From Candidatus Parcubacteria bacterium (GTDB lineage: Bacteria > Patescibacteriota > Minisyncoccia > UBA6257 > HR35): a DNA stretch of 64,000 nt. The stretch covers positions 459,547 to 523,546 of the forward strand of contig AP024681.1 of NCBI GenBank assembly GCA_025999335.1. The letters run 5' to 3'. The position numbers and the translations under genes are program-made. How positions within the stretch are numbered: the first letter of the stretch is position 1; each line of letters opens with the position of its first letter. The notes under the pieces were generated by a model that was not told the origin of the DNA, searched no databases, and was given only the letters and a program-made list of their open reading frames with translations. Shown here piece after piece: positions 42,893 to 57,022 of this stretch.

Positions 42893-43405
42893 ATGAATCA
42901 TCACAAAGAATCTAAATATATTATTGGTTCTGTTGTTTTAGGTATTGTTATAGGAATATTTATTTTTGTTAGTGGTCGTTATTTGTCAAATTTTACCGCT
43001 GGTAAGTATGTCGGCGTTTTTTTTAATAACGGCAATGTTTATTTCGGTAAATTATCTGTATTTCCTCAATTAAAATTAAAAAACGCAATTTTTCTTACTC
43101 AAGGAAATAATGGCGGATTGTATGCAAATAAACTATCAGATATACAATGGGCACCTGTTGGCGATATTTATTTTGATAGAAGCGCTGTGGCTTTTATTAT
43201 GCCTTTAAAAGAAAATTCACCATTGATTCAGGTTATTGAAGGTACGCCAGCAAATACTCCGACAACTCAACAAACAACGCCGCTAAATACTCAATCCGTT
43301 AATCAAAATCCAAATAATACCAATACTAACCCGAACGTTCCTGCAAATCAGCAAAATACGCAAACTCAAGGAGGTGCCTCGCCAAATGTTGTGCCTACTG
43401 AATAA
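42893..43405 (+). CDS. Small membrane-anchored protein with a Thr/Gln/Asn/Pro-rich C-terminal tail
   Basis: 170 aa. It has an N-terminal TM (IIGSVVLGIVIGIFIFV) and the tail TPANTPTTQQTTPLNTQSVNQNPNNTNTNPN. Confidence 0.5.
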   Translation: MNHHKESKYIIGSVVLGIVIGIFIFVSGRYLSNFTAGKYVGVFFNNGNVYFGKLSVFPQLKLKNAIFLTQGNNGGLYANKLSDIQWAPVGDIYFDRSAVAFIMPLKENSPLIQVIEGTPANTPTTQQTTPLNTQSVNQNPNNTNTNPNVPANQQNTQTQGGASPNVVPTE

Positions 43406-43467
43406 CAAAAAATATATTTCTGTAAAGTTTATAAAAAATTATAATTATTTTTAGAATTTGAAGATGC

Positions 43468-43476
43468 TGATATAAT
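43468..43476 (+). promoter_or_regulatory. Extended -10 element TGaTATAAT
   Basis: The sequence tgatataat is identical to the 9-mer at 45831–45839. It lies upstream of the 43592 gene. Confidence 0.4.
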
Positions 43477-43591
43477 CTTTTAGCTATTTATATTGTGATT
43501 TAACTATGTTGATAATTTAACGCAATTGTTAAGATAATTATAATATATTTAAAAGATTGAGAATGATAATTAATTAAAATTTATATAATCG

Positions 43592-43861
43592 ATGTATAAA
43601 AATTTTATCGTGACTATTATTCTAGTAATAATTTTTATATTATTTATTTACTATTTTGTTATTTTGCAGAGAAAATCATTCTTAACACCACAGTTACCAG
43701 TTTTAATCAATGAAGAAGAATTAATAACAATACCGACAACAACGACAGTAACCTCAACGCCATCGTCAGATACTTTATTAAAAACACAGCAACCAACTTC
43801 ATCAGCCTCAGATACAGAGTTATTAAAAATTACATCTACCTATACAACTTCATCTTTTTAG
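43592..43861 (+). CDS. Small membrane-anchored Ser/Thr-rich protein
   Basis: 89 aa. It has a TM (IVTIILVIIFILFIYYFVIL) and then TTTTVTSTPSSDTLL…TSSASDT. Confidence 0.45.
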   Translation: MYKNFIVTIILVIIFILFIYYFVILQRKSFLTPQLPVLINEEELITIPTTTTVTSTPSSDTLLKTQQPTSSASDTELLKITSTYTTSSF

Positions 43862-44040
43862 GTAATTTAATCTTTTGTAAAAATGAATTTAAGAAAAAAC
43901 AAAATGTATTAAATTACATAAGTACTTTTTTATATAATTTTTACAATTCAACTGGTATTATCATTTTAAAATATCCACATTTTTATTTAAATTTGATATC
44001 TAAATTTGTTATAATAAATTTTGATTAGACATTAGAAATA

Positions 44041-45735
44041 ATGGTTTTAAAAGATTTTGCATCTTTTAATTTTTTTATTGTTTTGCTAATTGCTTTGCTT
44101 TTTATGTTACCTTCATTTCTTTATTCTCAATCATTGCAACATCAAGGTAAAATAGGTTCTTATCCTATTGTTATTGAAGCTTTTAATCTTTTAGATGATA
44201 ATCAAACAATAGAAGGAAGATACAGGTATCAGAATAAAGATGTGTGGTTAATCTTAAAAGGAAAGATTGACTTAAAAAATAATTCTGTGTCTATAGATGA
44301 ATACGATGAAAATAATGTTAAAACTGGAGTTTTTAGTGGAACATATTTTAAGAAATCAAAAACAATAAAACTAACTAAATGGACTTCAGCTAAGAAAAAA
44401 ACATCATTAAAAGTATATTTACCTTCTATAAAATTATTAACCACTAAGAAAACAATTTCAACAACAAGATTACAATCAGAAAAAATTTATACCATACCTC
44501 AAGGATATGAAATTGCAGGAACAGTATTTTCAAAAGATTCAACCCGATATGCAATTTTACTAAAAACTCCAGAAGGAAAATATACAGTTGTTTTAGATGG
44601 AAAAGAAGGGAAGAAGTATGATCGTATTGAAAATCTCACTTTCTCTCCCGACAGTCAACATCTCGCTTATGTAGCTGGGGAAGATTGTAAAGATAATAAA
44701 ATATGCTCAAAACATTTCGTAGTATTAGATGGAAAAGAAGGGAAGAAGTATGAGTATATTGATAGTCTTACCTTTTCTCCTAAAGGTCAACGTTTTGCTT
44801 ATGTAGCTACGGAAGAAGATAAATATACAGTTGTTTTAGATGGAAAAGAAGGAAAATGGTATGATAATATTTATACTCTAACTTTCTCTTCTGATAGCAA
44901 GCGTTTCGCTTATGTAGCTAACGAAAAAGGAAAAAGACAATATACAGTTGTTATAGATGGAAAAGAAGAAAAAAGACATGGTTATGTTTCTGATTTCTCT
45001 TTTTCTCCTGATAGTAAACATTTTGTTTATGTAGCTGGAGAAGATTGTGAAATTATTACCTGCTCAAAATATTTCGTAGTTATAGATGGAAAAGAAGGGA
45101 AGAAGTATGATGACGTTGACCCTTTTGATTTCACTCTCTCTCCTGATGGTCAACATTTTGCTTATCTAACTACTAGAGAAGAAGATAAATATACAGTTGT
45201 CTTAGATGGAAAAAGGGGGAAGAAATATGATTATATTGAAAGATACGGCTTTTCTTTCTCTCCCGATAGTCGACATTTTGCTTATATCGTTGGAGAAGAT
45301 TGTAAAAAATATGAAAAAAATAGGTGTTTAAAATATTTCGTGGTTTTAGATGGAAAAGAAAGGGAGAGGTATGATTATATTGATAAAAATAATCTCATTT
45401 TCTCTCCCGACAGTCAACATCTCGCTTATGTAGCCGGAGGAGATTGTAAAGATAAAATATGCTCAAAATATTTAGTAGTTTTAGACGGAAAAGAAGGAAA
45501 GAAGTATGAGCGTGTTTATAATCTAACTTTTTCTCCTAACAGTCAACATTTTGCTTATGTAGTTGGAGAAAATTGCAAATATGATATATGCTTAAAATAC
45601 TTCGTGGTGTTAGATGACAAAGAAAGTGAAAGATATGATAAAATATATCAGTTTAATTTTCTTGAAAATAATAAAAACTTAATTTACTTTGTTTTAAAGA
45701 ATAATGAGATTTGGAGAATTGTTGAAGAGTTGTGA
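44041..45735 (+). CDS. Secreted tandem-repeat beta-propeller-like protein (PD40/TolB-like blades)
   Basis: 564 aa with a signal peptide. It has ≥9 degenerate repeats of the form YTVVLDGKEGKKYD-I-x-LTFSPDSQHFAYVAGEDCK…C-KYF, where FSPD-x-x-x-AYV is the PD40 blade motif. The repeat is visible at DNA level (tagatggaaaagaagggaagaagtatga recurs). Confidence 0.65.
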   Translation: MVLKDFASFNFFIVLLIALLFMLPSFLYSQSLQHQGKIGSYPIVIEAFNLLDDNQTIEGRYRYQNKDVWLILKGKIDLKNNSVSIDEYDENNVKTGVFSGTYFKKSKTIKLTKWTSAKKKTSLKVYLPSIKLLTTKKTISTTRLQSEKIYTIPQGYEIAGTVFSKDSTRYAILLKTPEGKYTVVLDGKEGKKYDRIENLTFSPDSQHLAYVAGEDCKDNKICSKHFVVLDGKEGKKYEYIDSLTFSPKGQRFAYVATEEDKYTVVLDGKEGKWYDNIYTLTFSSDSKRFAYVANEKGKRQYTVVIDGKEEKRHGYVSDFSFSPDSKHFVYVAGEDCEIITCSKYFVVIDGKEGKKYDDVDPFDFTLSPDGQHFAYLTTREEDKYTVVLDGKRGKKYDYIERYGFSFSPDSRHFAYIVGEDCKKYEKNRCLKYFVVLDGKERERYDYIDKNNLIFSPDSQHLAYVAGGDCKDKICSKYLVVLDGKEGKKYERVYNLTFSPNSQHFAYVVGENCKYDICLKYFVVLDDKESERYDKIYQFNFLENNKNLIYFVLKNNEIWRIVEEL

Positions 45736-45830
45736 AAATTTTGTATTGCAAAATGAATGATTATTAAAAGTTAATTATCTCTTTTATCCACTTAATGATT
45801 ATGTGTATTAAATAAATTTTATTTTTTTTG

Positions 45831-45839
45831 TGATATAAT
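45831..45839 (+). promoter_or_regulatory. Extended -10 promoter element TGaTATAAT upstream of the ribA-like leader
   Basis: The sequence tgatataat lies ~175 bp upstream of the 46013 ATG. Confidence 0.45.
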
Positions 45840-45913
45840 ATTAATTAAAGATGACATTACTTGCGAAACATAATTACAGTTTAGGTTTGTCAATTATTTT
45901 GCGCCGAGGTTTT

Positions 45914-45961
45914 CCGGCTGAGGTGATTTGATTTACAGAAAGTATATATCACTTCAGCCGG
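45914..45961 (+). promoter_or_regulatory. Long leader hairpin (14-bp stem, 20-nt loop), a candidate antiterminator or ligand/protein-binding element
   Basis: CCGGCUGAGGUGAU (45914–45927) pairs with AUCACUUCAGCCGG (45948–45961) with one G·U pair. Its 3' arm overlaps the 5' arm of the downstream terminator. Confidence 0.4.
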
Positions 45962-45979
45962 GGCAACCCGGCTTTTTTT
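45956..45979 (+). terminator. Intrinsic terminator in the 5' leader of the ribA-like gene
   Basis: AGCCGGG-GCAA-CCCGGCU (7-bp GC-rich stem with a GNRA loop) is followed by UUUUUUU. It lies 33 nt before the start codon. Confidence 0.6.
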
Positions 45980-46012
45980 GTTTTGATTTACTTTTAATAA
46001 ATATTTCAAAAA

Positions 46013-46630
46013 ATGACCTTGAAGCCAGTAATTACAAAAATACCAACTGATTACGGTAATTTTTGGTTTTTTGGTTTTAAAATTGACAATCAAGAGGTTT
46101 TAGTAATTGCCACCAAAAAGAATCCTAAAAATGGGGCTAATATAAGGTTGCATTCAAGTTGTTTTACAAGTGAAATTTTCGGTTCCTTAAAATGCGATTG
46201 CGCTGACCAATTAAAAGAATTTATGATTTTAATGAACAAGAATAGACGCGATGACTATTTATTAATTTATTTCTTAAATCATGAAGGTAGGGGCATAGGT
46301 TTGTTTAATAAATTGAGAGCCTATGAAGCGCAGCGAAAATTTAATTTAGATACTTATCAAGCGAATGAATATCTTGGCTTACCACACGATATGAGAGATT
46401 ATAGTCCAGTAATTGAAATTTTACGATATTTTAATCTAACAAAAGTTAATCTTTTTTCTAATAATCTTACAAAATTAGAGTTTCTTAAAAAAAATGGAAT
46501 CATTGTAAATATTAAGAATTTTTTTGTTAAACCAAAATCACAATATGCTTTTCAATATTTACTTGCAAAAGCAAAAAAGGGTAGTTATATTATAAAAAAC
46601 ATTAATTTAAAATATTCAAGGTTAAATTAG
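46013..46630 (+). CDS. GTP cyclohydrolase II family protein (RibA-like)
   Basis: 205 aa. It has RLHSSCFTSEIFGSLKCDCADQL (the three zinc-ligand Cys in RibA spacing), HEGRGIGLFNKLRAYEAQ and DTYQANEYLGLPHDMRDY. Confidence 0.7.
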   Translation: MTLKPVITKIPTDYGNFWFFGFKIDNQEVLVIATKKNPKNGANIRLHSSCFTSEIFGSLKCDCADQLKEFMILMNKNRRDDYLLIYFLNHEGRGIGLFNKLRAYEAQRKFNLDTYQANEYLGLPHDMRDYSPVIEILRYFNLTKVNLFSNNLTKLEFLKKNGIIVNIKNFFVKPKSQYAFQYLLAKAKKGSYIIKNINLKYSRLN

Positions 46631-46637
46631 GCAAATT

Positions 46638-47627
46638 ATGCCAATCAAAAAGCAGACAACAAAAACTTTTTTATTCGATCTTCATCTAGATTTAGAAGTT
46701 TATTTGAATAAAAATTTAAGAAAAATTTTAGGAATGAATTTTTACAAATTAGATCGACTTTATGTCGAACGGCATTTTGATTTAGTTCAAGCGAGAAAAG
46801 TTGGCTTAAAATATTTTGTAACCCAAGTTCAAGCAGTAAAATACAATTCTAAAGAAAAAATAATTTTTTCTCTTAATGATTTTGATGAATTTATTGCAAA
46901 TTATGAAAATTTTTTGAAACAAATTAAAAAATATCCCCAGCTTAAAATTATAAAAAGTTTAACTGATTTCAATTCTTTGTCTGAAGATCAAATAGGGGTA
47001 TTTTTAGGCGTTGAGGGTTTGAATTTTATAAATAAAATTGACGAAGTAGAATTATTGATTGACTTAGGCTTTAGAGTCTTTGGTTTAACATGGAATTTTG
47101 ACAATAAAATTGCCGGTGGTCTCAATAGTCATAAGCCATTAACAAAATTTGGCAAAAAAGTTGTTGAACTTTTAGTCGCTAGGGGGTGCATCATCGATTG
47201 TGCTCATTTAAATCATATTTCTGCTTTGGAGGTAATTGATTTAGCGCCTTCTAATTTTATTTTCTCTCATAATAATCTAAATAGCGTTGTCGCTTTTAAG
47301 CAAAACCTAAGCTCAGAAATACTATCTAAAATAAAAACAAAAGAGACATTGATAGGTTTAACTTTTCTTCCTTCATCCTTGACTACTTCTGGTCAACAAC
47401 CTACTTTTAAACATTGGTTTCAGCATTATAAGGAACTAAAAAAAATTAATCCTCAATTTTTAGCTATTGGTACTGACTATTTCGGTTTTGCTTTTAAAGA
47501 TACAGCTTTAGGAGCAAAGAATTATATTGAATTTAATAATAGTTTAATGAAATTTAAAATAAGTAAAGCAAAAATATTTTTTAATACTTTTAACTACTTT
47601 TATAATAAAATTAAGATATGGCAATAG
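46638..47627 (+). CDS. Membrane-dipeptidase family (peptidase M19) protein, cytoplasmic form
   Basis: 329 aa. It has the M19 metal-ligand pattern LFDLHLDL (HxD), GVEGL, GFRVFGLTWNFDNKIAGG, IDCAHLNH, FSHNN and AIGTDYFG. Confidence 0.6.
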   Translation: MPIKKQTTKTFLFDLHLDLEVYLNKNLRKILGMNFYKLDRLYVERHFDLVQARKVGLKYFVTQVQAVKYNSKEKIIFSLNDFDEFIANYENFLKQIKKYPQLKIIKSLTDFNSLSEDQIGVFLGVEGLNFINKIDEVELLIDLGFRVFGLTWNFDNKIAGGLNSHKPLTKFGKKVVELLVARGCIIDCAHLNHISALEVIDLAPSNFIFSHNNLNSVVAFKQNLSSEILSKIKTKETLIGLTFLPSSLTTSGQQPTFKHWFQHYKELKKINPQFLAIGTDYFGFAFKDTALGAKNYIEFNNSLMKFKISKAKIFFNTFNYFYNKIKIWQ

Positions 47628-49402
47628 AAAATTTTGATTCTTTGCGTGCTAACTATTTAAAAGATAATTTGCGTTATAAAAATTATTTAGAGTTTTTAAA
47701 AGAAAGAAGAGAACAGTCAAAGGCAGATTTAGAAAATTTGGCGCAAAATTTTAATATTCCCTTAGAAAAATTACAACAAATACGCACTGATATTAGAAAG
47801 CAGTTATTAAGTACAGAGGATAAAGATTATGCTGCTATTACAACAACATTTCATCTTTTGCCTTGGGAGTTGGAATATTATCTTTTGGCTAAAAAAAGAA
47901 TAAATTTATTAGATTATAAACCTACTCATATTTTTGATATTCCTATTGGTTATATGCAGTCCAAAGATGAAAAACCTCATCAGCTTACAATTGGCGATCG
48001 TTCTTTTAATTACTTAGAATTGATTTTTAATGTTAAAAAAGTTCCTAAAACTTCATATGAATTTTATTTATTGTTAAAAGAAGAATTTAAGAAATTTTTA
48101 GATTTAGAAGAAGTTGATTTTTCTAATTTAAAAGAGATAGTTGACGGATTATTTGCAAATCAACAATTTATTAATTCAAAAATTAAACCTATTTGCAATC
48201 ACTTAAAATCAAAGAATTTACTGAGATTAAATAAACAAGAATTACGAATCAGAGATAATGCTATAGACAAGTTATACGAAGATATTGTTAAAGAGATTAT
48301 ATATTTAATAGTTGACTTTTTAGTTTTTTTTGAAAATGATATTAAGATTAACGAAAAGCGAGAGAAGTTTTTAAAAACAGTTAAATATCTTTTTTCTCAA
48401 GAAGATTTACGTCCAATTTTTAATGCTTTGGGTTTATCATTAAATGTTAATATTGATGATTTTTTAGCTTTTAACGATTATGGGAAAATAATTTTTCTTA
48501 TAGTTATTTTAGGAGGTTTTGATCATATAGGCGCTGAATGGCCCGAAAAAGATAAATTAGGCAAATATAATTTAATAAGAAAATCATTAGGATTAAATTT
48601 AATTACCGAAGTGCCGCCAAATACGTTTGCAGAAAGATTTTTGCTATTTTCTGAATCATCTTTGTCTTCAGAAGCTAATTTTAAGCTTGTAGATTCGTTA
48701 ACCTTGCGTTTGCTTTTTTCTGAGGCGATGCCATCAATTACTTATCTAGCATCTTTTCAGGGTCCTTTTACTGGCACTTTTTCGCCTCTTGCTAAAGAGC
48801 ATCGAGATATTATACGTATTATTGATTTTGTTAGTACTTATAAATTATTTTTACAAGAAATAAAAAATGGAGATATTAAATTTAGCAATAAAATGTTGAT
48901 TGATATTATTAAAAAATATTATGAGACTGTTTTTAAAGGTGGCATTAAGGAAATGTTAAAGAATAAAATTGAAGAGTTTGAAAAAAATTATTTGACAGAT
49001 AATAATTTAGAATATGACTTATTTTTTAGCATAGAACAATTTAATAAATTTTTAAATGAATCAGGCATTAAAGATTACTCTATTAATTTACCTCTTTTAA
49101 TGAGTATCATTTTAGAAAATGAGATTTTTAACGCTTATTTTAAAACTGATATTCAGCGATTAGTTTCTAAAGAAGGCGGAGAACTATTAAATAAATTTTT
49201 AGCTACTGGGAGAAAAATAAAACGTTTAGAAAATTTTTTTGAGCATTTAAATGATAAACAGTTAGTTGGTAATCAAGACGAAAACACAACAATGATGTTT
49301 GGAGGAATCTCTTTGCCGTTTAATTTGCAAACTATTGATAGTGATTTTATAGGTTTAGTTATGCATTTTCGTAGAAAATTAATGTTTGAATCAAGGTTGT
49401 AA
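47618..49402 (+). CDS. Hypothetical cytoplasmic protein with no recognisable motif
   Basis: 594 aa, predominantly helical and Lys/Glu-rich. It is translationally coupled to both neighbours (10-bp and 1-bp overlaps). Confidence 0.5.
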   Translation: MAIENFDSLRANYLKDNLRYKNYLEFLKERREQSKADLENLAQNFNIPLEKLQQIRTDIRKQLLSTEDKDYAAITTTFHLLPWELEYYLLAKKRINLLDYKPTHIFDIPIGYMQSKDEKPHQLTIGDRSFNYLELIFNVKKVPKTSYEFYLLLKEEFKKFLDLEEVDFSNLKEIVDGLFANQQFINSKIKPICNHLKSKNLLRLNKQELRIRDNAIDKLYEDIVKEIIYLIVDFLVFFENDIKINEKREKFLKTVKYLFSQEDLRPIFNALGLSLNVNIDDFLAFNDYGKIIFLIVILGGFDHIGAEWPEKDKLGKYNLIRKSLGLNLITEVPPNTFAERFLLFSESSLSSEANFKLVDSLTLRLLFSEAMPSITYLASFQGPFTGTFSPLAKEHRDIIRIIDFVSTYKLFLQEIKNGDIKFSNKMLIDIIKKYYETVFKGGIKEMLKNKIEEFEKNYLTDNNLEYDLFFSIEQFNKFLNESGIKDYSINLPLLMSIILENEIFNAYFKTDIQRLVSKEGGELLNKFLATGRKIKRLENFFEHLNDKQLVGNQDENTTMMFGGISLPFNLQTIDSDFIGLVMHFRRKLMFESRL

Positions 49403-50562
49403 TGAATTTAAATATTAAACAAGTTAAAGATCAATTAATTAAAGAATTAAATCAATTAAAAACTCCTCAAGGTTTTCTTTTGGCTGGTTTTCCTCATTTT
49501 AACAAGCTTTTTGGTAGAGACTCTTTAATTGTTTCTTGGCAGCTTTTAAATTATGATGTTGAGATTGTCAAAAATACTTTAGAGATTTTATCTAAATTTC
49601 AAGGAGTGGCAGTTAGCGAGATGTCTGAAGAAGAACCGGGGAAAATATTGCACGAGCATATAATAGGTTTTGATAAACATTCTAAAGGAAACTGGCCCTT
49701 TCCTTATTATGGTTCAATTGATTCAACATTGCTTTATCTAATTTTATTTTATTTTTATTTTAATAAAACCAAAGATGCTGATTTTATTAAACAATTTTGG
49801 GCAAACATTGAAAAAGCGGTTGATTGGATTCTTAATTACGGCGATAGGGATAACGATTTATTTATTGAATATAAGAATAAAAACCCTAATGGGCTTTATA
49901 ACCAAGGTTGGAAAGATTCAAATTTTATAAAATCAAAACTGCCAATTGCTATTGTTGAAGTTCAGGGTTATGAATATTTTGCTTTAGTTAAGATCAGCGA
50001 ATTGATTAAAGTTCTTAATATTAATAAAGAATTTTTAGATGTATTAAAAGAACGCGCAGATAAACTTCAAGAAAAATTTAATCAAAATTTTTGGATGGAT
50101 GATAAAAAATATTTTGCTTTAGGTTTAGATGGTGATAAAAAACAAATAAAATATATAACTTCAAATCCCGGGCATTTACTTTTTACAGAAATTGTTGATA
50201 ATGATAAGATTGATTATATTGTTAAAAAGTTATTTTCGGAAGAATTATGGACTGAATATGGTATAAGAACCCATTCAATTTATGAAGAAAATTTCAATCC
50301 TTTGTCTTATCATTTAGGTTCTATCTGGCCCCATGATAATTGGATTATTGCTCAAGGTTTAAAAAAATTAAATTATTTAGAAGAATACAACAGAATTAAA
50401 TCTGCTCTTTTAAATGCATTTAAAACAATTGGTTATTTGCCTGAGTATTACGGAGTAATTAACAACGAAATCAAATTAGAAAATTTGGAAAAAACTCCTG
50501 ATTATCCTCAAGCTTGGTCGTCAGGTGCTTTGTTAAATTTTATTTTAGAAGATGAAAAATGA
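49402..50562 (+). CDS. GDE_C-family glycoside hydrolase (second paralog, catalytic domain only)
   Basis: 386 aa. LAGFPHFNKLFGRDSLIVSW matches the aGyhWF…GRD motif, and GWKDSNF…VEVQGYEY is present. Confidence 0.6.
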   Translation: MNLNIKQVKDQLIKELNQLKTPQGFLLAGFPHFNKLFGRDSLIVSWQLLNYDVEIVKNTLEILSKFQGVAVSEMSEEEPGKILHEHIIGFDKHSKGNWPFPYYGSIDSTLLYLILFYFYFNKTKDADFIKQFWANIEKAVDWILNYGDRDNDLFIEYKNKNPNGLYNQGWKDSNFIKSKLPIAIVEVQGYEYFALVKISELIKVLNINKEFLDVLKERADKLQEKFNQNFWMDDKKYFALGLDGDKKQIKYITSNPGHLLFTEIVDNDKIDYIVKKLFSEELWTEYGIRTHSIYEENFNPLSYHLGSIWPHDNWIIAQGLKKLNYLEEYNRIKSALLNAFKTIGYLPEYYGVINNEIKLENLEKTPDYPQAWSSGALLNFILEDEK

Positions 50563-51880
50563 AGTTATAAAATTTTTTTCTCAGTTTATTTCCATTCCAT
50601 CGGTTTCAACGCAAAAAGATAGGTTTAACGATATTTTAAAAGCTGCTCATTTTTTGAAAGACAAATTTTTGTCTTTAGGATTTAAAGTTAAATTAATTCA
50701 AGATAAAAATTGTCCGCCTTTAATTTTAGCTTTTAAATTTATCGGTAATCAAAAGACAATTGGAATTTACGGTCATTACGATGTTCAGCCTGAAGATCCG
50801 CTTAAAGAATGGAAAACCGAACCGTTTAAATTAATTTTGAAAAATGGAAAATTTTATGGTCGCGGCAGTGCTGATAATAAAGGTCATATTGTGCAAAATA
50901 TTTTTGCTCTTGAAGAATTAATTAAAGAAAATAAGCTAAAAAATAATATTGTTTTTGTAATTGAAGGTGAAGAAGAATCAGCTAGTTCTAATTTTGAAAA
51001 ATATGTTTTAAAAGCTAAAGATATTTTATCCAAAATCGATGTTTTTTATTTAACTGATGTAGGTATGCGAAAAAAGAATATGCCAACAATTTATTATGCT
51101 CTGCGAGGAATTGTTTATTTTGAATTGAAAATAAAAATCGGTGAATACGATCTTCATTCAGGTAGTTATGGTAATTTAGCTTTAAATCCTGCTCAATTTT
51201 TAGGAGATCTGTTTTCAAAAATGAAGGATTTAAAAACAGGAAAAATTTTAATTTCTGGATTTTATGATGATGTAAGAAAAATTGACAATAAAGAAAAACG
51301 ATTATTGAAATTAGCTAGTCAAAAAGTAAAGGACATTTTAAAAGAGTCAAAACTTTATTTTCTTTGTTCTGTGGATAAGAAAAATCCATCATTTTCGACT
51401 AAAATTTATCCTTCCTTGGATGTCAATGGAATTAGCAGTGGTTATGTTGGCGAAGGGGCGAAGACAATTATTCCTAAAGAAGCAATTGTAAAATTTTCTT
51501 TTCGATTAATTGAATATCAAAAACCAGAAAAAATTATAAAATTAGTTCAAAATTTTATTAAAAAAAACATACCTCAAGGAATGAAATATGAATTAAAAAT
51601 TTTAGGTGCTTCTAGTCCCTTTTATACTCCAATAAATAATGAATATACCATGAAAACAAAGGCGATTTTAGAAACTATCTTTAAGAATAAAGTTATTTTT
51701 GATAGAGTTGGGGGTTCTATTCCAGCTGCAGAAATTTTACAAAGAGTTTTCAAAAAAACAATAATTTTAACAGGTTTTATGTTGCCAGATTGTAATATTC
51801 ATGCCCCTAATGAAAATTTCGATGAAGAAATGTTTTGGAAAGGCTTAAAAACTTTAAAATTAATTTATTCTTCAATTTAA
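50552..51880 (+). CDS. M20 family metallopeptidase (dipeptidase/deacylase)
   Basis: 442 aa. It has GIYGHYDVQPEDPLKEWKTEPF, GRGSADNKGHIV and EGEEES (M20 metal-binding His/Asp/Glu motifs). Confidence 0.7.
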   Translation: MKNEVIKFFSQFISIPSVSTQKDRFNDILKAAHFLKDKFLSLGFKVKLIQDKNCPPLILAFKFIGNQKTIGIYGHYDVQPEDPLKEWKTEPFKLILKNGKFYGRGSADNKGHIVQNIFALEELIKENKLKNNIVFVIEGEEESASSNFEKYVLKAKDILSKIDVFYLTDVGMRKKNMPTIYYALRGIVYFELKIKIGEYDLHSGSYGNLALNPAQFLGDLFSKMKDLKTGKILISGFYDDVRKIDNKEKRLLKLASQKVKDILKESKLYFLCSVDKKNPSFSTKIYPSLDVNGISSGYVGEGAKTIIPKEAIVKFSFRLIEYQKPEKIIKLVQNFIKKNIPQGMKYELKILGASSPFYTPINNEYTMKTKAILETIFKNKVIFDRVGGSIPAAEILQRVFKKTIILTGFMLPDCNIHAPNENFDEEMFWKGLKTLKLIYSSI

Positions 51881-51899
51881 TTTTTTAATTTAATCTGAG

Positions 51900-52730
51900 A
51901 TGAATATTTTTTACATTAACGGAAAATTTATTCCAGAAAAACAAGCTAAAATTTCGATTTATGATTTAGGATTTTTGCGAGGATATGCTGTTTTTGATTT
52001 TCTAAGAACTTATCAAGGAGAGCCATTTTATTTAAAAGAACATTTACAAAGACTTTTAAACTCAGCGAAATTAATTGGTTTAAAGCATAATTATAGTTTA
52101 AATTTATTGATAAAAATTGTTTTAAAAACTTTAAAGAAAAATAATCTTAAAGAAGCAAGTATAAGAATTTATTTAACTGGTGGTTATTCAAAAGATTTTA
52201 TTTTGCCATCAAAACCACAATTAATTATTATTATTACTCCGATTAAAAAACCCCCTGATTATCTATATATTAAGGGCGGCAAATTAATTACTAAAATTTC
52301 CGAAAGGATTCTTCCTCAAGCGAAAACAATTGTTTATACTGAAGGAATAAAATTTTTACAAGAAGCAAAAAGAAAAAATGCAATTGAAGTTTTGTTAATC
52401 AGCAAAGACGGTAAAATTTTGGAATGCACAACTTCAAACTTTTTTGCCGTTATAAATAAAAAATTAATCACACCACCGACAGAGCAAATTTTAGCTGGCA
52501 TAACTCGCAAAGTTGTTATTCAATTAGCTAAAAAATTAAAAATTCCTGTAATTGAAAGAAATATTAATTTTAAAGAAATTAAAAATTTCGATGAAGCTTT
52601 TATAACAGCAACCAATAAAGAAATCCTGCCGATTGTAAAAATTGATAAAATAAAAATAGGCAAAGGTAAAGTTGGCGAAATAACAAAAATTTTAATGATC
52701 GAATTTAAAAAACTAACTGAGAATTATTGA
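51900..52730 (+). CDS. Class IV PLP-dependent aminotransferase (D-amino-acid or branched-chain aminotransferase-like)
   Basis: 276 aa. INGKFIPEKQAKISIYDLGFLRGYAVFDFLRTYQGEPFYLKEHLQRL matches the class IV fold N-terminus. Confidence 0.65.
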   Translation: MNIFYINGKFIPEKQAKISIYDLGFLRGYAVFDFLRTYQGEPFYLKEHLQRLLNSAKLIGLKHNYSLNLLIKIVLKTLKKNNLKEASIRIYLTGGYSKDFILPSKPQLIIIITPIKKPPDYLYIKGGKLITKISERILPQAKTIVYTEGIKFLQEAKRKNAIEVLLISKDGKILECTTSNFFAVINKKLITPPTEQILAGITRKVVIQLAKKLKIPVIERNINFKEIKNFDEAFITATNKEILPIVKIDKIKIGKGKVGEITKILMIEFKKLTENY

Positions 52731-52762
52731 TGAAAAATAAATAAAAAAATTTTATTCAAAGT

Positions 52763-53113
52763 TTGAAATATGCAATTAAAGGTTTAAATTATGCTTTTAA
52801 ACACCATCGTCATTTTAAAATAGAACTTTTCGTTGTCATTTTAGTAATTATCTTAAGTTTTATTTTTGATCTTAATACCCTCGAATTTCTTTCAATTCTT
52901 TTTGCCATAGTTTTAGTTTTGATTTCTGAAATTTTTAATAATTTAATTAAAGAAACTTTGAATTTTGTCTATCAAGAATATCATCAAAAAGTAAAATTCA
53001 TTAAAGATTTATCAGCAAGAGCTGTTTTAATTGCGGTTATTTACAGCTTAATTGTCGGAATAATAATCTTTTTACCAAAGATATTTAGCTTGTTTATATA
53101 TCCCCTTAGTTGA
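52763..53113 (+). CDS. dgkA: Diacylglycerol / undecaprenol kinase (DgkA family)
   Basis: 116 aa with a TTG start. It has three TM helices and AIKGLNYAFKHHRHFKIE…SEIFNNLIKE (the DgkA E-x-xN-x-IE motif). Confidence 0.65.
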   Translation: MKYAIKGLNYAFKHHRHFKIELFVVILVIILSFIFDLNTLEFLSILFAIVLVLISEIFNNLIKETLNFVYQEYHQKVKFIKDLSARAVLIAVIYSLIVGIIIFLPKIFSLFIYPLS

Positions 53114-53147
53114 ATTTATCTAAATATCGCTTTCAAATTATGATAAA

Positions 53148-53948
53148 ATGAATTCAATGATAAAAAGATTAATTAAAAAATCAATTTTTGTTTTAAGAAA
53201 TTATGGTTTAAAGGTTTTTTTAATTAAAGCTTTAAAATTTCCTCTCAATAGGATAAATCTTTTAAGACAAAAGTTAGGAGAAAAAAGAGCTTATAAAAAT
53301 TCCCAAAGAGTTATTTACAAATTAAAACAATTCAATTCTAATAATCCTGAAGAAGTTTTTAATTTTGCTTGGAAATTCTATTTTGGTTTAATTAGACCAA
53401 TGCAAATTAAAGAAGAATTCCTTGAACTTTTAAAAATCTTTCAACAGCTAAACCCCCAATATATTATGGAAATCGGAACAGCTAATGGCGGAACTCTATT
53501 TTGTTTTTGTAAATTAGCTAAAGATGATGCTACGATAATATCTATTGATCTTCCAGAAGGACCATTTGGCGGAGGTTATCCCAAATGGAGAATTCCAATT
53601 TATCAAGCTTTTGCTAAAGAAAATCAAAAATTATATCTCATAAGAGAAGATTCCCATAAAGAAGAAACCTTAAATAAAGTAAAAGAAGTTCTTAATGGCA
53701 ATCAATTAGATTTTCTTTTCATTGATGGTGATCACAGTTATGAAGGAGTTAAAAAGGATTTTGAAATGTATTCCCCTTTAGTTAGAAAAGGTGGGATAAT
53801 TGCATTTCATGATATTAATATTCATTTAAATGCACCAGAAATAGGCGTTAATAAATTTTGGAATGAGATAAAAAATCGCTTTGTCCATAAAGAAATGATT
53901 AAAGGCCATATTTCAGGTTGGGCAGGGATTGGTGTTTTATTTTTATAA
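53148..53948 (+). CDS. Class I SAM-dependent methyltransferase (CmcI/TylF-like sugar O-methyltransferase)
   Basis: 266 aa. It has MEIGTANGGTLFCF (a glycine-rich SAM loop) and FLFIDGDHSYEGVKKDFE…GGIIAFHDI. Confidence 0.6.
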   Translation: MNSMIKRLIKKSIFVLRNYGLKVFLIKALKFPLNRINLLRQKLGEKRAYKNSQRVIYKLKQFNSNNPEEVFNFAWKFYFGLIRPMQIKEEFLELLKIFQQLNPQYIMEIGTANGGTLFCFCKLAKDDATIISIDLPEGPFGGGYPKWRIPIYQAFAKENQKLYLIREDSHKEETLNKVKEVLNGNQLDFLFIDGDHSYEGVKKDFEMYSPLVRKGGIIAFHDINIHLNAPEIGVNKFWNEIKNRFVHKEMIKGHISGWAGIGVLFL

Positions 53949-53962
53949 TTAGTTTATAACTA

Positions 53963-54907
53963 ATGAATAAGCAACAATTAATAGAAAAATTAGATTATTC
54001 AGCACGAAAATATTTGTTTCCTTTAAAGACAAGGTTTTTAAAATTTCCTTTTATTACCTTAAGAGATGCTTTTATAACTATTTTGTTTAACAAAGTTTTA
54101 AGACAAAAAATTTATTTTTTAGTAAAAGCAAAAACCTTTTTTGAAGAAGATTTTTATTGCATTTTCCCCGAATCAACAGATGTTTATTTTTATGGAGCTT
54201 ATGTTTATTGTAATCCTGAATACAGATTGACCAGGTTTATAATAAAACATAACTTTAAAGATAATTTAATATTTTTTGATCTCGGAGCTCATTATGGATA
54301 CTATTCAGTTTTAATGAGCAAACTATATCCTCAAAGCAAAGTGTTTGCTTTTGAACCAGATAGAGGTGTTTTAGAAATTTTGAAAAAAAATAAAAGAGAA
54401 AATATCGAAATAATTCCTAAGGCAGTTGGTTCTTTTAATGGCAAAACAAAATTTTATTCTTTTGACTTATTAAGTTCAGGAGTCTCAACTTTAAATATAG
54501 AAAACTTAAAAAAAATTCCCCTTACTCAACAAAAGCCGAATGAATACGAAGTTGAAGTTATTACCTTAGATAGTTTTTGTGAAGAAAATAAAATAATTCC
54601 TGATTTTATCAAAATTGATGTTGAAGGAGCTGAAGAAGATGTTTTAAGGGGATCAACTAAGTTATTAAAAAATAAATCACCAATTATTGCTCTTGAAATT
54701 TGGTTTCGACCCACACCTCCCGAAAATTATCTTAATGCTGTTAATATTTTAAAGAATAATGAATTTAAAATGTTCGCCATAACTGAAAACGGTGATTTAG
54801 AAGAAGTAAATTATGACAATATTTTTGAATATTTTAAAAAACTTGAAGAAAGATATAAAAAAATAAATCAAGGAATTGTTTTTGATAATTTAATTTTTCT
54901 TAAATGA
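53963..54907 (+). CDS. FkbM-family methyltransferase
   Basis: 314 aa. IFFDLGAHYGYYSVLMSKLYPQSKVFAFEPDRGVLEIL is the FkbM domain signature. Confidence 0.65.
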   Translation: MNKQQLIEKLDYSARKYLFPLKTRFLKFPFITLRDAFITILFNKVLRQKIYFLVKAKTFFEEDFYCIFPESTDVYFYGAYVYCNPEYRLTRFIIKHNFKDNLIFFDLGAHYGYYSVLMSKLYPQSKVFAFEPDRGVLEILKKNKRENIEIIPKAVGSFNGKTKFYSFDLLSSGVSTLNIENLKKIPLTQQKPNEYEVEVITLDSFCEENKIIPDFIKIDVEGAEEDVLRGSTKLLKNKSPIIALEIWFRPTPPENYLNAVNILKNNEFKMFAITENGDLEEVNYDNIFEYFKKLEERYKKINQGIVFDNLIFLK

Positions 54908-56052
54908 AAAAAATTCTCTTTATTGGAGATAATTGGTTTGGAGATTTAGGTGGGAGAAAGAAAATAGTTTTGGCTTTAATGAATTTTTTAATCAATGACT
55001 ATAATATTTATTTACTCACCATAGATACTAAAATTAAAAAGGAATCAATTAAAGATTTTAAAAAAGATTTAGAAGAAGACATCAACATTTATCCTTATTT
55101 TTTTCCAAGGAATGTATTTTTTTATTTCAAACTTTTAATCCTCTTCGGAATAAAAATTTTAAAGATAAGACCCAACCTTATAATTTCTTTTGGCGGGGGA
55201 CCTCATTCTAATGCGAATTTTTTCTATATAAGTAAAATCTTTGCACCAAAAAGTAAAATAATTTTTATTGAACAAGGAAATACAAGGCATTTATTCAATA
55301 AACAAAATCTGATAGTGAAACTTTTAACTAAAATAGCATTTAAAAGTGTAGATAAAATAATTACGGCAGGCGAGGGAGTAGCTGAGGATGTAAAAAATTT
55401 ATTTAATTTAAGAAACAATCAAGTAACTTTTGTTTATAATTTTGTTGATTTTGAAAAAATTAAAAATTTAAGCTTGGAAGCAATTGAAGAAAAAATTTTT
55501 GCAGATAAATTCAAACCAATAATATTAGCAGTTAATAGGTTAGATTTATATCAAAAAGATATTTTAACTTTATTAAACGCCTTTTCTGTTGTTGCTCAAA
55601 ATGTAGATGCGTATTTAGTAATCATAGGTGAAGGACCTGATAGAGTCAAAGTAGAGAACAAAATTAAAGAATTAAATTTAGAGTCGAAAGTTTTTTTGTT
55701 AGGTCATAAAAATAATCCCTATAAATATATGAAAAATTCAGATGTTTTTGTTTTAAGTAGTTTCCATGAGGGAATGCCTATTGTTTTAATTGAAGCTATG
55801 GTTTGCAATCTACCGGTTGTTGCTACTGATTGTGATTTTGGACCAAGAGAAATAATTAAAGATGGACATAATGGATTTTTAGTTAAGGTCGGCGATTATG
55901 AAACTATGGCAAAAAAAATAATTGAATTAATCAAACACAAGGAGTTAATAAGAAAATTTGTAGAAAATTCGTTTTCGATTTTACCTTACTTTTCTTCTAA
56001 TTATGCTTTAGAAAAATATAAAGAAATTATAAATTCAGTAATGACACAATGA
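54904..56052 (+). CDS. Glycosyltransferase family 4
   Basis: 382 aa with the C-terminal motif EGMPIVLIEAMVCNLPVVATDCDFGPREII. Confidence 0.75.
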   Translation: MKKILFIGDNWFGDLGGRKKIVLALMNFLINDYNIYLLTIDTKIKKESIKDFKKDLEEDINIYPYFFPRNVFFYFKLLILFGIKILKIRPNLIISFGGGPHSNANFFYISKIFAPKSKIIFIEQGNTRHLFNKQNLIVKLLTKIAFKSVDKIITAGEGVAEDVKNLFNLRNNQVTFVYNFVDFEKIKNLSLEAIEEKIFADKFKPIILAVNRLDLYQKDILTLLNAFSVVAQNVDAYLVIIGEGPDRVKVENKIKELNLESKVFLLGHKNNPYKYMKNSDVFVLSSFHEGMPIVLIEAMVCNLPVVATDCDFGPREIIKDGHNGFLVKVGDYETMAKKIIELIKHKELIRKFVENSFSILPYFSSNYALEKYKEIINSVMTQ

Positions 56053-57020
56053 AAATAGTTTTAATTTTTAACAAATCGTTTCCTTGTACAACAGGGCAAT
56101 ATATTTTGAAGATTTTAGAAAAAGAAAATGAAGTTTTTGTTTTATCACCAAAAGATAATTTTCAAAAAATTCACGAAATCCAACCAGATTTTATTTTAGT
56201 AATCGATGATAGTAGTCATTATATTCTAGATGTTAATTATCATCCTAAGGTAATATGGATTATTGATTCACATACTTCTTTTATCTGTGATAAAGTGATG
56301 GTTAAGAGTTTTGATATTGTTTTTGTGGCTCAGAAAGAATACGTTGAGAAATTTAAAAAATATAATCAACATGTTTATTGGCTTTCTTTAGCTTGTGATC
56401 CAGATTGGCATAGTAAACAGAATTTAGAAAAAATTTATGATGTTGCTTTTATTGGACAAATGGGAAGAGGCTGGCGGAGGAAATTATTAATAAATTTAAA
56501 AAAAGATTTCCCTAACTCTTTTATTTCTTCAGCTGACTGTAAAGATATTGGCAAAATCTATTCTCAAGCTAAAATAGTTGTTAATTATAATGTTAATAAT
56601 GATATTAATATGCGGGTTTTTGAGGCTTTGTGTTCTGGAAATTTACTTTTAACAAATAAAATAAAAGATAATGGTTTTAATGAATTATTTGAAGATAGAA
56701 AACATTTAGTGGTTTATAATGGGACTTATAGAGATTTAAAAGAAAAAATTAAATATTATTTAGAAAATGAAGAAGAAAGAGAAAAAATGGCTGAAAATGG
56801 AAGGAATTTAGCTTTATCTTTACATACTTATCAACAGAGAGCAGATTTTATGGTTAAAAAAATTTTAGAACTCAAAAACGAAAAATTTTATGATTATTCA
56901 AATTTAAGCTATTCTCTAATGAAATTAAATTTATTCATTAGATTTTTATTTTGGAAAGTGATTTATTTAAGGGTTTGGCAAGTTTTAGCCGAATTAAATG
57001 CTCTTTTAAGATTTAAGTAA
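56049..57020 (+). CDS. CgeB/DUF3880-like glycosyltransferase
   Basis: 323 aa with VAFIGQMGRGWRRKLL and MRVFEALCSGNLLLTN. Confidence 0.55.
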   Translation: MKIVLIFNKSFPCTTGQYILKILEKENEVFVLSPKDNFQKIHEIQPDFILVIDDSSHYILDVNYHPKVIWIIDSHTSFICDKVMVKSFDIVFVAQKEYVEKFKKYNQHVYWLSLACDPDWHSKQNLEKIYDVAFIGQMGRGWRRKLLINLKKDFPNSFISSADCKDIGKIYSQAKIVVNYNVNNDINMRVFEALCSGNLLLTNKIKDNGFNELFEDRKHLVVYNGTYRDLKEKIKYYLENEEEREKMAENGRNLALSLHTYQQRADFMVKKILELKNEKFYDYSNLSYSLMKLNLFIRFLFWKVIYLRVWQVLAELNALLRFK

Positions 57021-57022
57021 TT

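Follow-up and report, generated by a model that had tools for sequence, protein, structure and literature searches.

A probable leader-peptide transcription attenuator upstream of a ribA-like operon in Patescibacteria

The leader of a ribA-like operon in the 64-kb stretch of Patescibacteria DNA analysed here (the window) appears from its sequence to be a conditional transcription terminator, or attenuator, that serves this operon. It is probably a ribosome-mediated attenuator of the trp/leu/ilv type with a 26-codon leader peptide, and folding with modelled ribosomes suggests that the choice between its structures is most likely set by a ribosome translating the leader open reading frame (uORF). 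The original prediction had proposed a riboswitch or an attenuator; the second half of this proposal was borne out by a conserved switch and a geometry suited to read-through, but the first was not, as neither an Rfam match nor an aptamer was found. Patescibacteria (candidate phyla radiation) have tiny genomes and few recognisable regulators, and depend heavily on their hosts for amino acids. Our literature searches on leader peptides or attenuation in Patescibacteria found no paper. If the proposed reading is true, these bacteria use coupled transcription-translation as a sensor, by way of nearly leaderless uORFs free of Shine-Dalgarno sites, to turn on genes for peptide scavenging (M19 and M20 dipeptidases and a branched-chain aminotransferase (BCAT)-like transaminase) along with those for an uncharacterised protein and an orphan GTP cyclohydrolase II, which would offer a physiological handle on an operon of otherwise obscure function.

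Leader architecture and the downstream operon

The extended −10 promoter, a 14-bp hairpin, an overlapping GCAA-loop terminator with its U7 tract, and a distance of 33 nt from the tract to the ribA-like ATG (46013) were all in place as originally predicted (Table 1). The hairpin pairs 45914–45927 with 45948–45961, including one G-U pair, and the terminator (AGCCGGG-GCAA-CCCGGCT, 45956–45973, with T7 to 45979) was also picked up by a consensus scan. As both strands of the window hold only two sites with a GC-rich hairpin and a T-run, this one and another inside an ORF, the leader terminator is not background. Compared with shuffled sequences, the leader folded with z = −5.7 (141 nt) or −6.4 (91 nt), and equally stable shuffles were not found (0/200). 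The predicted competition between hairpin and terminator held in so far as both helices exist. However, the minimum free energy (MFE) structure is neither of them alone but a single rod spanning 45903–45972, because GCCG-A-GG (45903–45909) pairs with CC-CGGC (45967–45972). A repeat or mobile element was rejected as the origin of the hairpin: its arm occurs once in the window, and a covariance model of the leader (R1) found no second copy there.

Table 1. Features of the leader and of the operon downstream (window positions).
Feature	Position	Strand	Remark
Extended −10 promoter TG-A-TATAAT (TGATATAAT)	45831–45839	+	From sequence; without a −35 match
Leader ORF, 26 codons and TGA, MTLLAKHNYSLGLSIILRRGFPAEVI	45851–45931	+	
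Hydrophobic codon run SLGLSIIL (codons 10–17)	45878–45901	+	Holds predicted regulatory stall positions, P-site I15–L17
Two Arg codons, CGC CGA	45902–45907	+	Rare in the genome; overlap S1
S1 (GCCG-A-GG)	45903–45909	+	Pairs with S4, closing the rod; weak pairing with S2 possible
S2 core CCGGCU (45914–45919) and distal antiterminator 5' arm	45914–45927	+	Translated P-A-E-V-I
Antiterminator 3' arm including S3 (AGCCGGG, 45956–45962)	45948–45962	+	S3 doubles as terminator 5' arm
Terminator loop GCAA	45963–45966	+	
S4 (CCCGGCU, 45967–45973) and U7 tract (45973–45979)	45967–45979	+	Putative intrinsic terminator 3' arm and release site
Rod, S1:S4 stacked on S2:S3	45903–45972	+	MFE of ribosome-free leader; ends directly at U-tract
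GTP cyclohydrolase II-like (ribA-like, orphan) gene	46013–46630	+	
M19 dipeptidase gene	46638–47627	+	
594-aa protein gene	47618–49402	+	No Pfam, NCBIfam or PDB match
GDE_C/MGH1-like glycosidase gene	49402–50562	+	
M20 dipeptidase-like gene	50552–51880	+	NCBIfam matches below curated cut-offs
Class IV (BCAT-like) aminotransferase gene	51900–52730	+	NCBIfam matches below curated cut-offs

The ∼75 nt between promoter and hairpin, originally read as plain leader, hold a conserved ORF that had been missed. Transcription would start at about 45846. The ORF begins shortly past the promoter, its ATG only 11 nt past the −10 hexamer, so that the mRNA would be nearly leaderless, and its stop codon lies just 3' of S2 and ∼25 nt ahead of S3. 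As Shine-Dalgarno sites are nearly absent from the genome (3/51 ORFs), the start of this uORF resembles any other start in it. Behind the hydrophobic run, the ORF enters S1 with two Arg codons of the CGN type; in ten window genes, Arg is encoded by AGA (56), AGG (20), CGA (16), CGT (12), CGC (6) and CGG (1).

We followed the operon over 46013–52730, with more genes on the + strand beyond. It is not an amino-acid biosynthetic operon. Only three homologues of the 594-aa protein were retrievable, and its AlphaFold model has a pLDDT of 46. The M20 dipeptidase-like and BCAT-like genes are known from the window, as the other loci of the comparison set end too early.

Conservation and co-variation of the leader

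The window and 11 other Patescibacteria loci (L005, L012, L013, L015, L016, L018, L019, L020, L021, L102 and L104) gave 12 leaders from ∼7 lineages. Promoter, short ORF, S1–S4 and U-tract come in the same order in all 12, whichever gene lies upstream, and the ribA-like, M19 dipeptidase and 594-aa-type genes are syntenic in 12/12 loci. Checking related genomes for leader conservation, as had been suggested, thus spoke for the prediction: the layout is kept, GC-rich segments co-vary between lineages, and the two mutually exclusive structures ahead of the ribA-like gene are conserved with compensatory changes. It also argues against a terminator that belongs to a convergent or upstream transcript, as the downstream genes share the leader's strand in every locus and the upstream gene of L102 is divergent. 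A terminator of the upstream gene was likewise rejected: in L005, L013 and L015 the leader is preceded by a consensus promoter, ahead of which stands another, separate terminator. At the position of the window promoter, L016 carries the same TGTGATATAAT, and TTGACA-N16/17-TATAAT or TAAAAT is found in L005, L012, L013, L015, L020, L102 and L021.

In every leader (12/12), a single ORF starts with ATG, spans at least 15 codons and has a stop that begins 0–10 nt past the S2 core. With the S2 cores fixed, shuffled leaders held such an ORF in 3–22% of cases per leader, and the product over seven lineages is 8.6e-8, a figure whose factors are not truly independent because the 12 leaders are homologous. 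These ORFs have 17–30 codons, and their ATG lies 8–13 nt past the −10 hexamer in 9/12 leaders. The frame in which S2 (CCGGCU) is read differs, being CCG-GCU in the window group and (C)CC-GGC-U(AA) in L005, L013 and L015. In the eight codons before the GC-rich tail, L, I, F, V, M and C make up 82% (12 leaders pooled) versus 35% in ten window genes, and T stands at codon position 2 in 80% in frame versus 64% and 51% out of frame. An Arg CGN codon falls at S1 in 11/12 leaders. The ORFs end in RRGFPAEVI, CRRFPAEVI, SRGVPAEVI, NRGYPG, SRNFPG, FRHFPG, CGRFRRP, CGRARRP or GRRRP, each directly before the stop codon, and likewise in GRRLLT (L020) and KPGPPANL (L018). R-x-(F/Y/V)-P tails occur in 6/12 leaders and RRP-stop in 3/12, counts that are confounded by the GC-rich stems, and these motifs are absent or different in L018, L020 and L102. 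As GC-rich stems encode R, P, G and A in any frame and U-rich tracts lean towards codons for hydrophobic residues, the conservation of the peptide is weak independent evidence only.

All three helices can form in every leader, with −20 to −41 kcal/mol for the rod, −15 to −31 for S2:S3 and −7 to −15 for S3:S4. The S2:S3 helix is more stable than S3:S4 in 12/12 leaders, and the rod is the MFE in 11/12. S3:S4 is followed by T5–T7, which is degenerate in L015 (TATTT). Although the segments diverge between lineages, they stay complementary, as in GCCGGG/CCCGGC, UGGCCGGC/GUCGGCCA, GGGCCGG/CCGGCCC and GGUCGGC/GCCGACC. On alignment A5, 82.5% of cells in the rod are paired versus 69.6% in shuffled alignments (0/500 reach this value), and 10/15 of its pairs have changed on both sides; compensatory changes were also counted for the antiterminator S2:S3. 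MAFFT with covariance-model realignment kept the S2:S3 core in register across lineages, with S3:S4 and S1:S4 out of register. Because the alignments lose their register there, the terminator and S1:S4 were assessed per sequence (RNAduplex versus shuffles) instead of by column counts. By this measure the upstream partner of S3, which is S2, had p ≤ 0.034 in every leader, and a partner of S4, which is S1, was found 0–4 nt upstream of S2 in 12/12 leaders (p 0.000–0.072). Outside these segments, the hairpin's distal stem and loop differ freely between leaders in both sequence and length, the U-rich tract ahead of S1 keeps its composition, and upstream of the hairpin there is conservation only as an open reading frame.

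Ribosome position and the proposed attenuation mechanism

In a thermodynamic scan with a ribosome placed along the uORF, the probability that S4 is paired was ∼1 without a ribosome or with one at or near the stop codon. It fell to 0–0.57 only at two to four P-site codons that end the hydrophobic run, and this narrow window of read-through held for footprints of +10 to +16 nt. In five leaders the minimum was 0.40–0.57, which corresponds to a predicted read-through that is only partial at equilibrium. Within the sensitive window, the A site is occupied mainly by codons for I, L, F, V and R.

These results suggest a model in which a strong promoter yields a transcript that opens with the short ORF, has almost no 5' UTR and continues into four GC-rich segments. 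S3:S4 with the U-tract would be the intrinsic terminator, S2:S3 the more stable antiterminator, and S1 a further partner of S4. On a leader free of ribosomes, S2:S3 would form and S1 would clamp S4, so that the rod ends at the U-tract and, if it acts as a terminator as we assume, transcription stops. A ribosome that has reached the stop codon would cover S1 and S2 and leave S3:S4 to form, again with termination. When a ribosome is held at the last codons of the hydrophobic run, S1 would be covered with S2 free; S2:S3 would then form, S4 would be left without a partner and RNA polymerase would read into the ribA-like/dipeptidase operon. The signal is most likely, on this modelling, too little tRNA charged with Leu, Ile, Phe or Val, and low levels of hydrophobic amino acids would thereby switch on genes for peptide scavenging and transamination. 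The rare CGN Arg codons after the run may contribute to the signal. As the trigger itself, stalling at Arg codons was rejected: it fits the window group and L005, but in L013, L015 and L019–L021 a ribosome with Arg in its A site covers S2, and such a trigger would be possible only with a short (+10) footprint.

Alternative readings and known leader systems

The same leader could be an attenuator in which arrest of the nascent peptide, not tRNA charging, is the signal, which we consider unlikely. Arrest at the R-x-F/Y/V-P or RRP-stop tail might be triggered by a small molecule inside the ribosome's exit tunnel, as in TnaC and SpeFL, or by elongation stress or antibiotics, as in the Erm and Cat leaders. 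Tails with R-x-x-P or RP-stop are present in many leaders, the first with the same spacing as the RAGP arrest motif of SecM and, for RP-stop, a likeness to the end of TnaC, and peptides of 17–30 aa would sit wholly inside the exit tunnel, like the short regulatory peptides of TnaC, SpeFL and SecM. As the operon is not biosynthetic, one can conceive of a metabolite signal tied to the orphan GTP cyclohydrolase II. The narrower version, in which the hydrophobic run and the R-x-Φ-P or RRP-stop tail sense, within the ribosome tunnel, a metabolite linked to the GTP cyclohydrolase II-like enzyme or to its 500–600-aa partner, is quite improbable in our judgement; the S1:S4 clamp would there ensure that only an actively stalled ribosome opens the operon, and, if true, an ultra-small symbiont would be using a sensor like TnaC or SpeFL to control an intrinsic terminator. 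However, translation of GC-rich stems is expected to yield R, P and G, and the motif is not universal, being absent in L020 and different in L018. In the scan, moreover, a ribosome at the tail codons covers S2 and gives termination, not read-through. Arrest at the tail would therefore turn the operon off, either constitutively or in response to a ligand, and after release the rod would still terminate. The predicted effect of a tail stall is thus to terminate and not to induce, unlike in TnaC, SpeFL and SecM, and the output here would be an intrinsic terminator with an alternative hairpin instead of Rho access or the unmasking of a Shine-Dalgarno site.

Translation might also play no part. An RNA-only, protein-controlled or sRNA-controlled attenuator, with the ORF incidental and the decision taken by a trans-acting factor or ligand on the U-rich tract, S1 or the rod, is improbable too, even though the four-segment switch shows conservation of its own, the U-rich tract is conserved in composition and nucleotide constraints confound the conservation of the peptide. 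What argues against it is the frame itself: ATG and stop keep a fixed geometry in 12/12 leaders despite strong divergence of the ORF and a differing frame relative to S2, and the ATG keeps a fixed short distance from the promoter. Nor does the conserved three-gene core encode a candidate RNA-binding regulator, and there are no conserved unpaired nucleotides for a protein or ligand to read. For T-box, TRAP, PyrR and LicT control, we found no T-box or related Rfam match and no repeated motif in the 12-leader alignments. A metabolite-binding riboswitch, with an aptamer for GTP, guanine or a flavin in 45840–45961 controlling the terminator, is highly improbable. An expression platform is present, with mutually exclusive antiterminator and terminator ahead of a metabolic gene, but from the transcript start to S1 there is no conserved sequence or structure beyond the ORF. 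Conserved internal loops or junctions are absent, the distal stem and loop vary, and the conserved nucleotides lie in co-varying helices and not in unpaired pockets. The Rfam scan that had been proposed for assigning a riboswitch class gave no family match on any of the 12 leaders (E ≤ 10 for the region, gathering score for the whole window, E ≤ 0.1 for the 11 other leaders); the best matches were hairpin noise (mir-23, Gut-1) and a sub-threshold Termite-leu match on the L013 terminator. The locus is a cautionary case: put forward as a candidate riboswitch, it finds a better explanation in a uORF.

A leader without a regulatory role is very unlikely; in that case the short ORF would encode an independent small protein, or the transcript would be a small RNA, ending at a constitutive terminator of its own, and the operon would be expressed from elsewhere. 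In favour of this, promoter, short ORF and strong terminator add up to a complete minimal gene, and the rod has high stability. In a plain terminator, however, the double complementarity of S3 to S2 and S4 would be purposeless, and the hydrophobic stretch, at five to nine residues, could not span a membrane as a helix. In L016, L102, L019, L104 and L020, the ribA-like ATG lies 8–12 nt past the U-tract, which leaves no space for another promoter, and expression of the operon must therefore depend on read-through. The leader also always travels with the ribA-like operon and with nothing else: covariance model R1 found it nowhere else in the window and in none of 87 other ribA loci. A metagenome scan with the protein-family alignment retrieved 80 ordinary ribA loci (32–45% identity), which served as negative controls only, and no new leaders, the patterns being too generic.

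With ribosome-mediated attenuation as the preferred reading, the leader is most likely a variant of a known attenuation mechanism. In E. coli and Salmonella, ilvL and leuL are promoter-proximal short ORFs rich in Leu, Ile and Val with a G/R/P-rich tail, followed by alternative hairpins and a U-tract between which the position of the ribosome selects, and the ilv operon includes the BCAT gene ilvE. The window leader shares with the ilvGMEDA and leu attenuators the hydrophobic short ORF, the stem-encoding tail, the alternative hairpins with a U-tract and a BCAT-like gene in the operon. It has no sequence or Rfam relationship to them, however, and Phe is as frequent in its hydrophobic run as the branched-chain residues. 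The targets also differ, being a GTP cyclohydrolase II-like enzyme, dipeptidases and an uncharacterised protein and not biosynthetic enzymes, and the uORF starts almost at the 5' end, with no Shine-Dalgarno site ahead of it. The S1:S4 clamp, which nests the antiterminator in a long terminator rod, largely stands in for the 1:2 protector hairpin. A pyrBI-type coupling, in which the leader ORF runs through the terminator hairpin, does not apply, as the stop codon lies 41–50 nt before the U-tract in 12/12 leaders.

In E. coli trpL, four segments pair as 1:2, 2:3 or 3:4; a ribosome that has reached the stop codon hides segment 2 and leads to termination, and a stall in segment 1 leads to read-through. 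The thermodynamic scan points to the same four-segment logic and placement of the stop codon in the Patescibacteria leader. Unlike trpL, it has no tandem codons for one amino acid, the regulatory codons at the stall position being mixed (four amino acids) with no single-residue repeat, and default termination would come about by 1:4 pairing. Pairing of 1:2 is weak here because S1 and S2 are adjacent (0–4 nt apart). An antiterminator nested in a larger terminator rod would be a variant of the four-segment scheme in which read-through strictly needs a stalled ribosome.

A precedent is the Corynebacterium ilvB-II motif, a candidate non-coding RNA that was judged to be a uORF attenuator as all representatives have an in-frame start and stop and encode peptides enriched in branched-chain amino acids (PMC10272879), criteria similar to those applied here. 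An attenuator peptide is also reported for the S. aureus ilv-leu operon (PMC5794164). Both cases differ from the Patescibacteria leader in phylum, sequence and regulated genes and have support from reporter assays, whereas the leader described here was studied by its sequence. They resemble it in that a conserved non-coding RNA motif upstream of an operon is, or in the present case probably is, a uORF-based attenuator.

A leader shared by ribA-like loci

Pfam identifies the ribA-like product, encoded at 46013-46630, as homologous to GTP cyclohydrolase II (E = 7e-37). Both the EGRGIG motif and the Zn-binding cysteines are retained, and the score of 152.3 bits is just above the NCBIfam RibA subfamily cut-off of 148. 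A Pfam scan of 15 window ORFs (42893-56052) found no further riboflavin genes. Patescibacteria/Parcubacteria MAGs and assemblies contain about 15 close relatives (50-72% identity), beyond which the matches are ordinary RibA. We analysed the DNA of 11 distinct relatives (loci L005, L012, L013, L015, L016, L018, L019, L020, L021, L102 and L104), and in all of them, as in the window, the ribA-like gene is followed by genes for an M19 dipeptidase and an unknown 500-600-aa protein. Upstream neighbours differ by locus (WD40-like protein, SecA with a 126-aa ORF, SOD, LTD-domain protein, Na/Ca exchanger or, in L102, a divergent glutamyl-tRNA synthetase).

All 12 leaders share one layout: a strong promoter (TTGACA-N16/17-TATAAT or TAAAAT, or an extended -10), an ORF of 17-30 codons, four GC-rich segments (S1-S4) and a U-tract, degenerate in L015 only, with the structural-gene ATG following after 8-60 nt. 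These leaders, used to build a covariance model, score 52-81 bits with it; the model detected no further copy in the window, among 86 other ribA loci or in L103, a more distant homologue in another gene context that has no leader. Conservation and co-variation among relatives, which the original prediction had named as a check, were found across the 12 leaders. In the window, the -10 element, 14-bp hairpin, overlapping terminator, T7 run and ATG all lie exactly where it had placed them.

Features of the leader in the window
Feature	Position	Strand	Basis or remark
Extended -10, TG-A-TATAAT	45831-39	+	sequence
uORF, MTLLAKHNYSLGLSIILRRGFPAEVI-stop	45851-45931	+	start 11 nt past -10 hexamer; end within hairpin 5' arm
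Rod (S1:S4 stacked on S2:S3)	45903-45972	+	minimum-free-energy fold
S1, GCCG-A-GG	45903-09	+	pairs with S4 (CC-CGGC), the terminator 3' arm
14-bp hairpin, one G-U pair	45914-27 with 45948-61	+	sequence
Terminator, AGCCGGG-GCAA-CCCGGCU	45956-73	+	sequence; also in consensus scan
T7 run	ends 45979	+	sequence
ribA-like ATG	46013	+	sequence

At L021, the database call of the RibA-like protein P0013 (252 aa) begins inside the leader (L021:2501-2600), which adds an N-terminal extension of ~30 residues translated from the attenuator hairpin; translation probably begins instead at the ATG ~13 nt past the U-tract, at ~2598. In L005, L013 and L015 a conserved cluster of three tRNA genes, encoded on the other strand, precedes the leader by a few hundred bases (L005:1993-2218, L013:1589-1813, L015:1605-1830).

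Competing helices

The window leader is far more stable than its dinucleotide shuffles (z = -5.7 and -6.4; 0/200 shuffles equally stable). The 3' arm of the hairpin overlaps the 5' arm of the terminator, and the proposed mutual exclusion is borne out in all 12 leaders, where S3 is complementary to both S2 (antiterminator) and S4 (terminator). As a full picture, however, competition between two hairpins was incomplete: at minimum free energy the leader folds into one rod, in which the 14-bp hairpin is nested in a longer, previously overlooked helix, S1:S4, whose end abuts the U-tract.

The GC-rich segments vary between lineages yet keep their mutual complementarity, S3/S4 reading GCCGGG/CCCGGC in the window group of leaders, CCGGG/CCCGG in L005, CCGGGGG/CCCCCGG in L013, UGGCCGGC/GUCGGCCA in L019, GGGCCGG/CCGGCCC in L020 and L102, and GGUCGGC/GCCGACC in L021. 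Compared with shuffles, the second, upstream partner of the terminator 5' arm, S2, is significant in 12/12 leaders (p <= 0.034), and the terminator 3' arm can pair with S1, whose position is 0-4 nt upstream of S2 (p 0.000 to 0.072). Across the leaders the rod has an energy of -20 to -41 kcal/mol, S2:S3 alone -15 to -31 and S3:S4 alone -7 to -15. In the model-based alignment, rod pairing was 82.5% versus 69.6% in shuffles, none of 500 reaching 82.5%, slid registers gave at most 51%, and 10 of 15 rod pairs had changed on both sides. Because this alignment is out of register for S3:S4 between lineages, support for that helix comes from the per-sequence tests.

A strict scan of both strands of the 64 kb found GC-rich hairpins followed by a T-run at only two sites. 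One is the leader terminator, which is thus no ordinary gene-end terminator for this genome; the other, 42997-43016, falls within ORF 42893-43405. Canonical GC-rich intrinsic terminators are nearly missing from the window.

A leader ORF and the readings of the leader

The spacer between promoter and hairpin holds a short ORF (uORF) that the original prediction missed, and together with the S1:S4 rod this changes the interpretation of the leader. In each of the 12 leaders a single ATG-started frame spans 15 codons or more and has its stop 0-10 nt past the S2 core, whereas shuffling the upstream part yields a qualifying frame in 3-22% of cases; the product over 7 lineages, using the largest value per lineage, is 8.6e-8, which overstates independence because the lineages are homologous. 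S2 (CCGGCU) is read CCG-GCU in the window group and (C)CC-GGC-U(AA) in L005, L013 and L015, indicating that the stop position relative to S2 is kept and a particular codon phase is not. The stop codon lies 41-50 nt from the U-tract in 12/12 leaders. The uORF ATG is 8-13 nt past the -10 hexamer in 9/12, implying nearly leaderless translation, and the genome appears to start translation without Shine-Dalgarno sites, an SD-like 4-mer occurring at -20 to -4 in 3/51 window ORFs (>=150 aa) versus 10% of random 17-nt stretches.

To model ribosome position, we masked the mRNA from its 5' end to 10-16 nt past the first base of the P-site codon and computed, per P-site position, the probability that the last five S4 bases are paired. 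This probability was 0.74-1.00 without a ribosome and 0.97-1.00 with a ribosome on the tail codons or stop. It dropped only at 2-4 consecutive P-site codons ending the hydrophobic run, reaching 0.00-0.20 in seven leaders but 0.40-0.57 in the other five; these are equilibrium values, and as S2:S3 forms ahead of S4 transcription, co-transcriptional folding should favour read-through beyond them. Overall, the leader is probably a ribosome-mediated leader-peptide attenuator: a ribosome stalled on segment 1 would leave S2:S3 to form and allow read-through, one at the stop would permit S3:S4 and termination, and without a ribosome termination would be the default, S1 clamping S4 beneath the antiterminator. 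S1:S2 pairing is weak, as these segments adjoin.

The original interpretation was partly right: of the two options offered, riboswitch or attenuator, the latter stands. A metabolite-binding riboswitch is scarcely credible given that an Rfam search, proposed as a check, returned no family match for any of the 12 leaders and that their alignments contain no conserved unpaired core. (The L013 leader terminator, L013:2443-2500, resembled Termite-leu RNA, RF01730, below threshold; at 28 bits, where the gathering score is 51, and E = 0.055, the hairpin probably matched by chance.) A switch worked by RNA alone or by a protein, the ORF being incidental, is unlikely: GC-rich stems and a U-rich tract do confound the peptide composition, but the fixed ATG and stop geometry would go unexplained. 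We likewise doubt an arrest-peptide sensor, as the tails carrying R-x-Phi-P or RRP-stop are not universal among leaders and a stall there predicts termination instead of read-through. That the uORF is an independent small gene with a constitutive terminator is very unlikely, the U-tract being just 8-12 nt from the structural ATG in five loci and S3 having two complementary partners.

The predicted leader-peptide attenuator would share its mode of working with ilvL, leuL and trpL, including the trp logic of 2:3 upon stalling on 1 and 3:4 at the stop; it differs from trp in its weak 1:2 and in default termination via the S1:S4 clamp. Similar criteria led to reassignment of the Corynebacterium ilvB-II candidate ncRNA motif to a uORF attenuator (PMC10272879). 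By structure the leader qualifies as a leader-peptide attenuator; judged by sequence, it belongs to no described family. The attenuators compared here come from other phyla, and this leader also stands apart in its mixed hydrophobic codon run, its nested S1:S4 clamp, a uORF that is nearly leaderless and Shine-Dalgarno-free, and a non-biosynthetic operon. A full-text literature search did not find 'leader peptide', 'attenuation' and 'Patescibacteria' together, and Patescibacteria are unmentioned among the matches listed for riboswitch or attenuator queries.

Candidate signal and operon content

Of the eight codons ahead of the GC-rich tail, 82% encode L/I/F/V/M/C (L 27, I 23, F 17 and V 6 of 96), versus 35% in ten window genes. 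Within the sensitive window, I, L, F and V make up most of the A-site residues, and at the shortest footprint the first Arg joins them; leader Arg codons are CGN, rare in this genome. If the leader is a leader-peptide attenuator, we give about even weight to hydrophobic amino acid supply being its signal, such that poorly charged tRNAs for these residues would turn on dipeptidases and a transaminase.

Downstream of the leader, the window scan found no GC-rich terminator within the operon, which after a GDE_C-like glycosidase continues with an M20 dipeptidase-like gene and a class IV aminotransferase (best NCBIfam matches branched-chain aminotransferases, below cut-off); the last two are a window observation, gene order in other loci being seen up to the third gene, and the L021 operon ends after three genes. 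Patescibacteria are generally regarded as auxotrophic symbionts, and a tRNA-charging response involving dipeptidases and a transaminase would be coherent with such a lifestyle.

The third core gene (47618-49402) encodes a 594-aa protein, 500-600 aa in 12/12 loci, with no Pfam, NCBIfam or PDB match and a mostly helical AlphaFold2 model of low confidence (pLDDT 46). Upstream of the leader, 44041-45735 encodes 564 aa with many near-identical repeats of ~45 residues containing ...FSPDSQHLAYVAGEDCKD...YFVVLDGKEGKKYD... and weak PD40/WD40-like Pfam matches. Past the aminotransferase gene, 52763-61059 holds tightly packed same-strand genes for a DAG kinase, two methyltransferases and a GT1 glycosyltransferase, with further ORFs.
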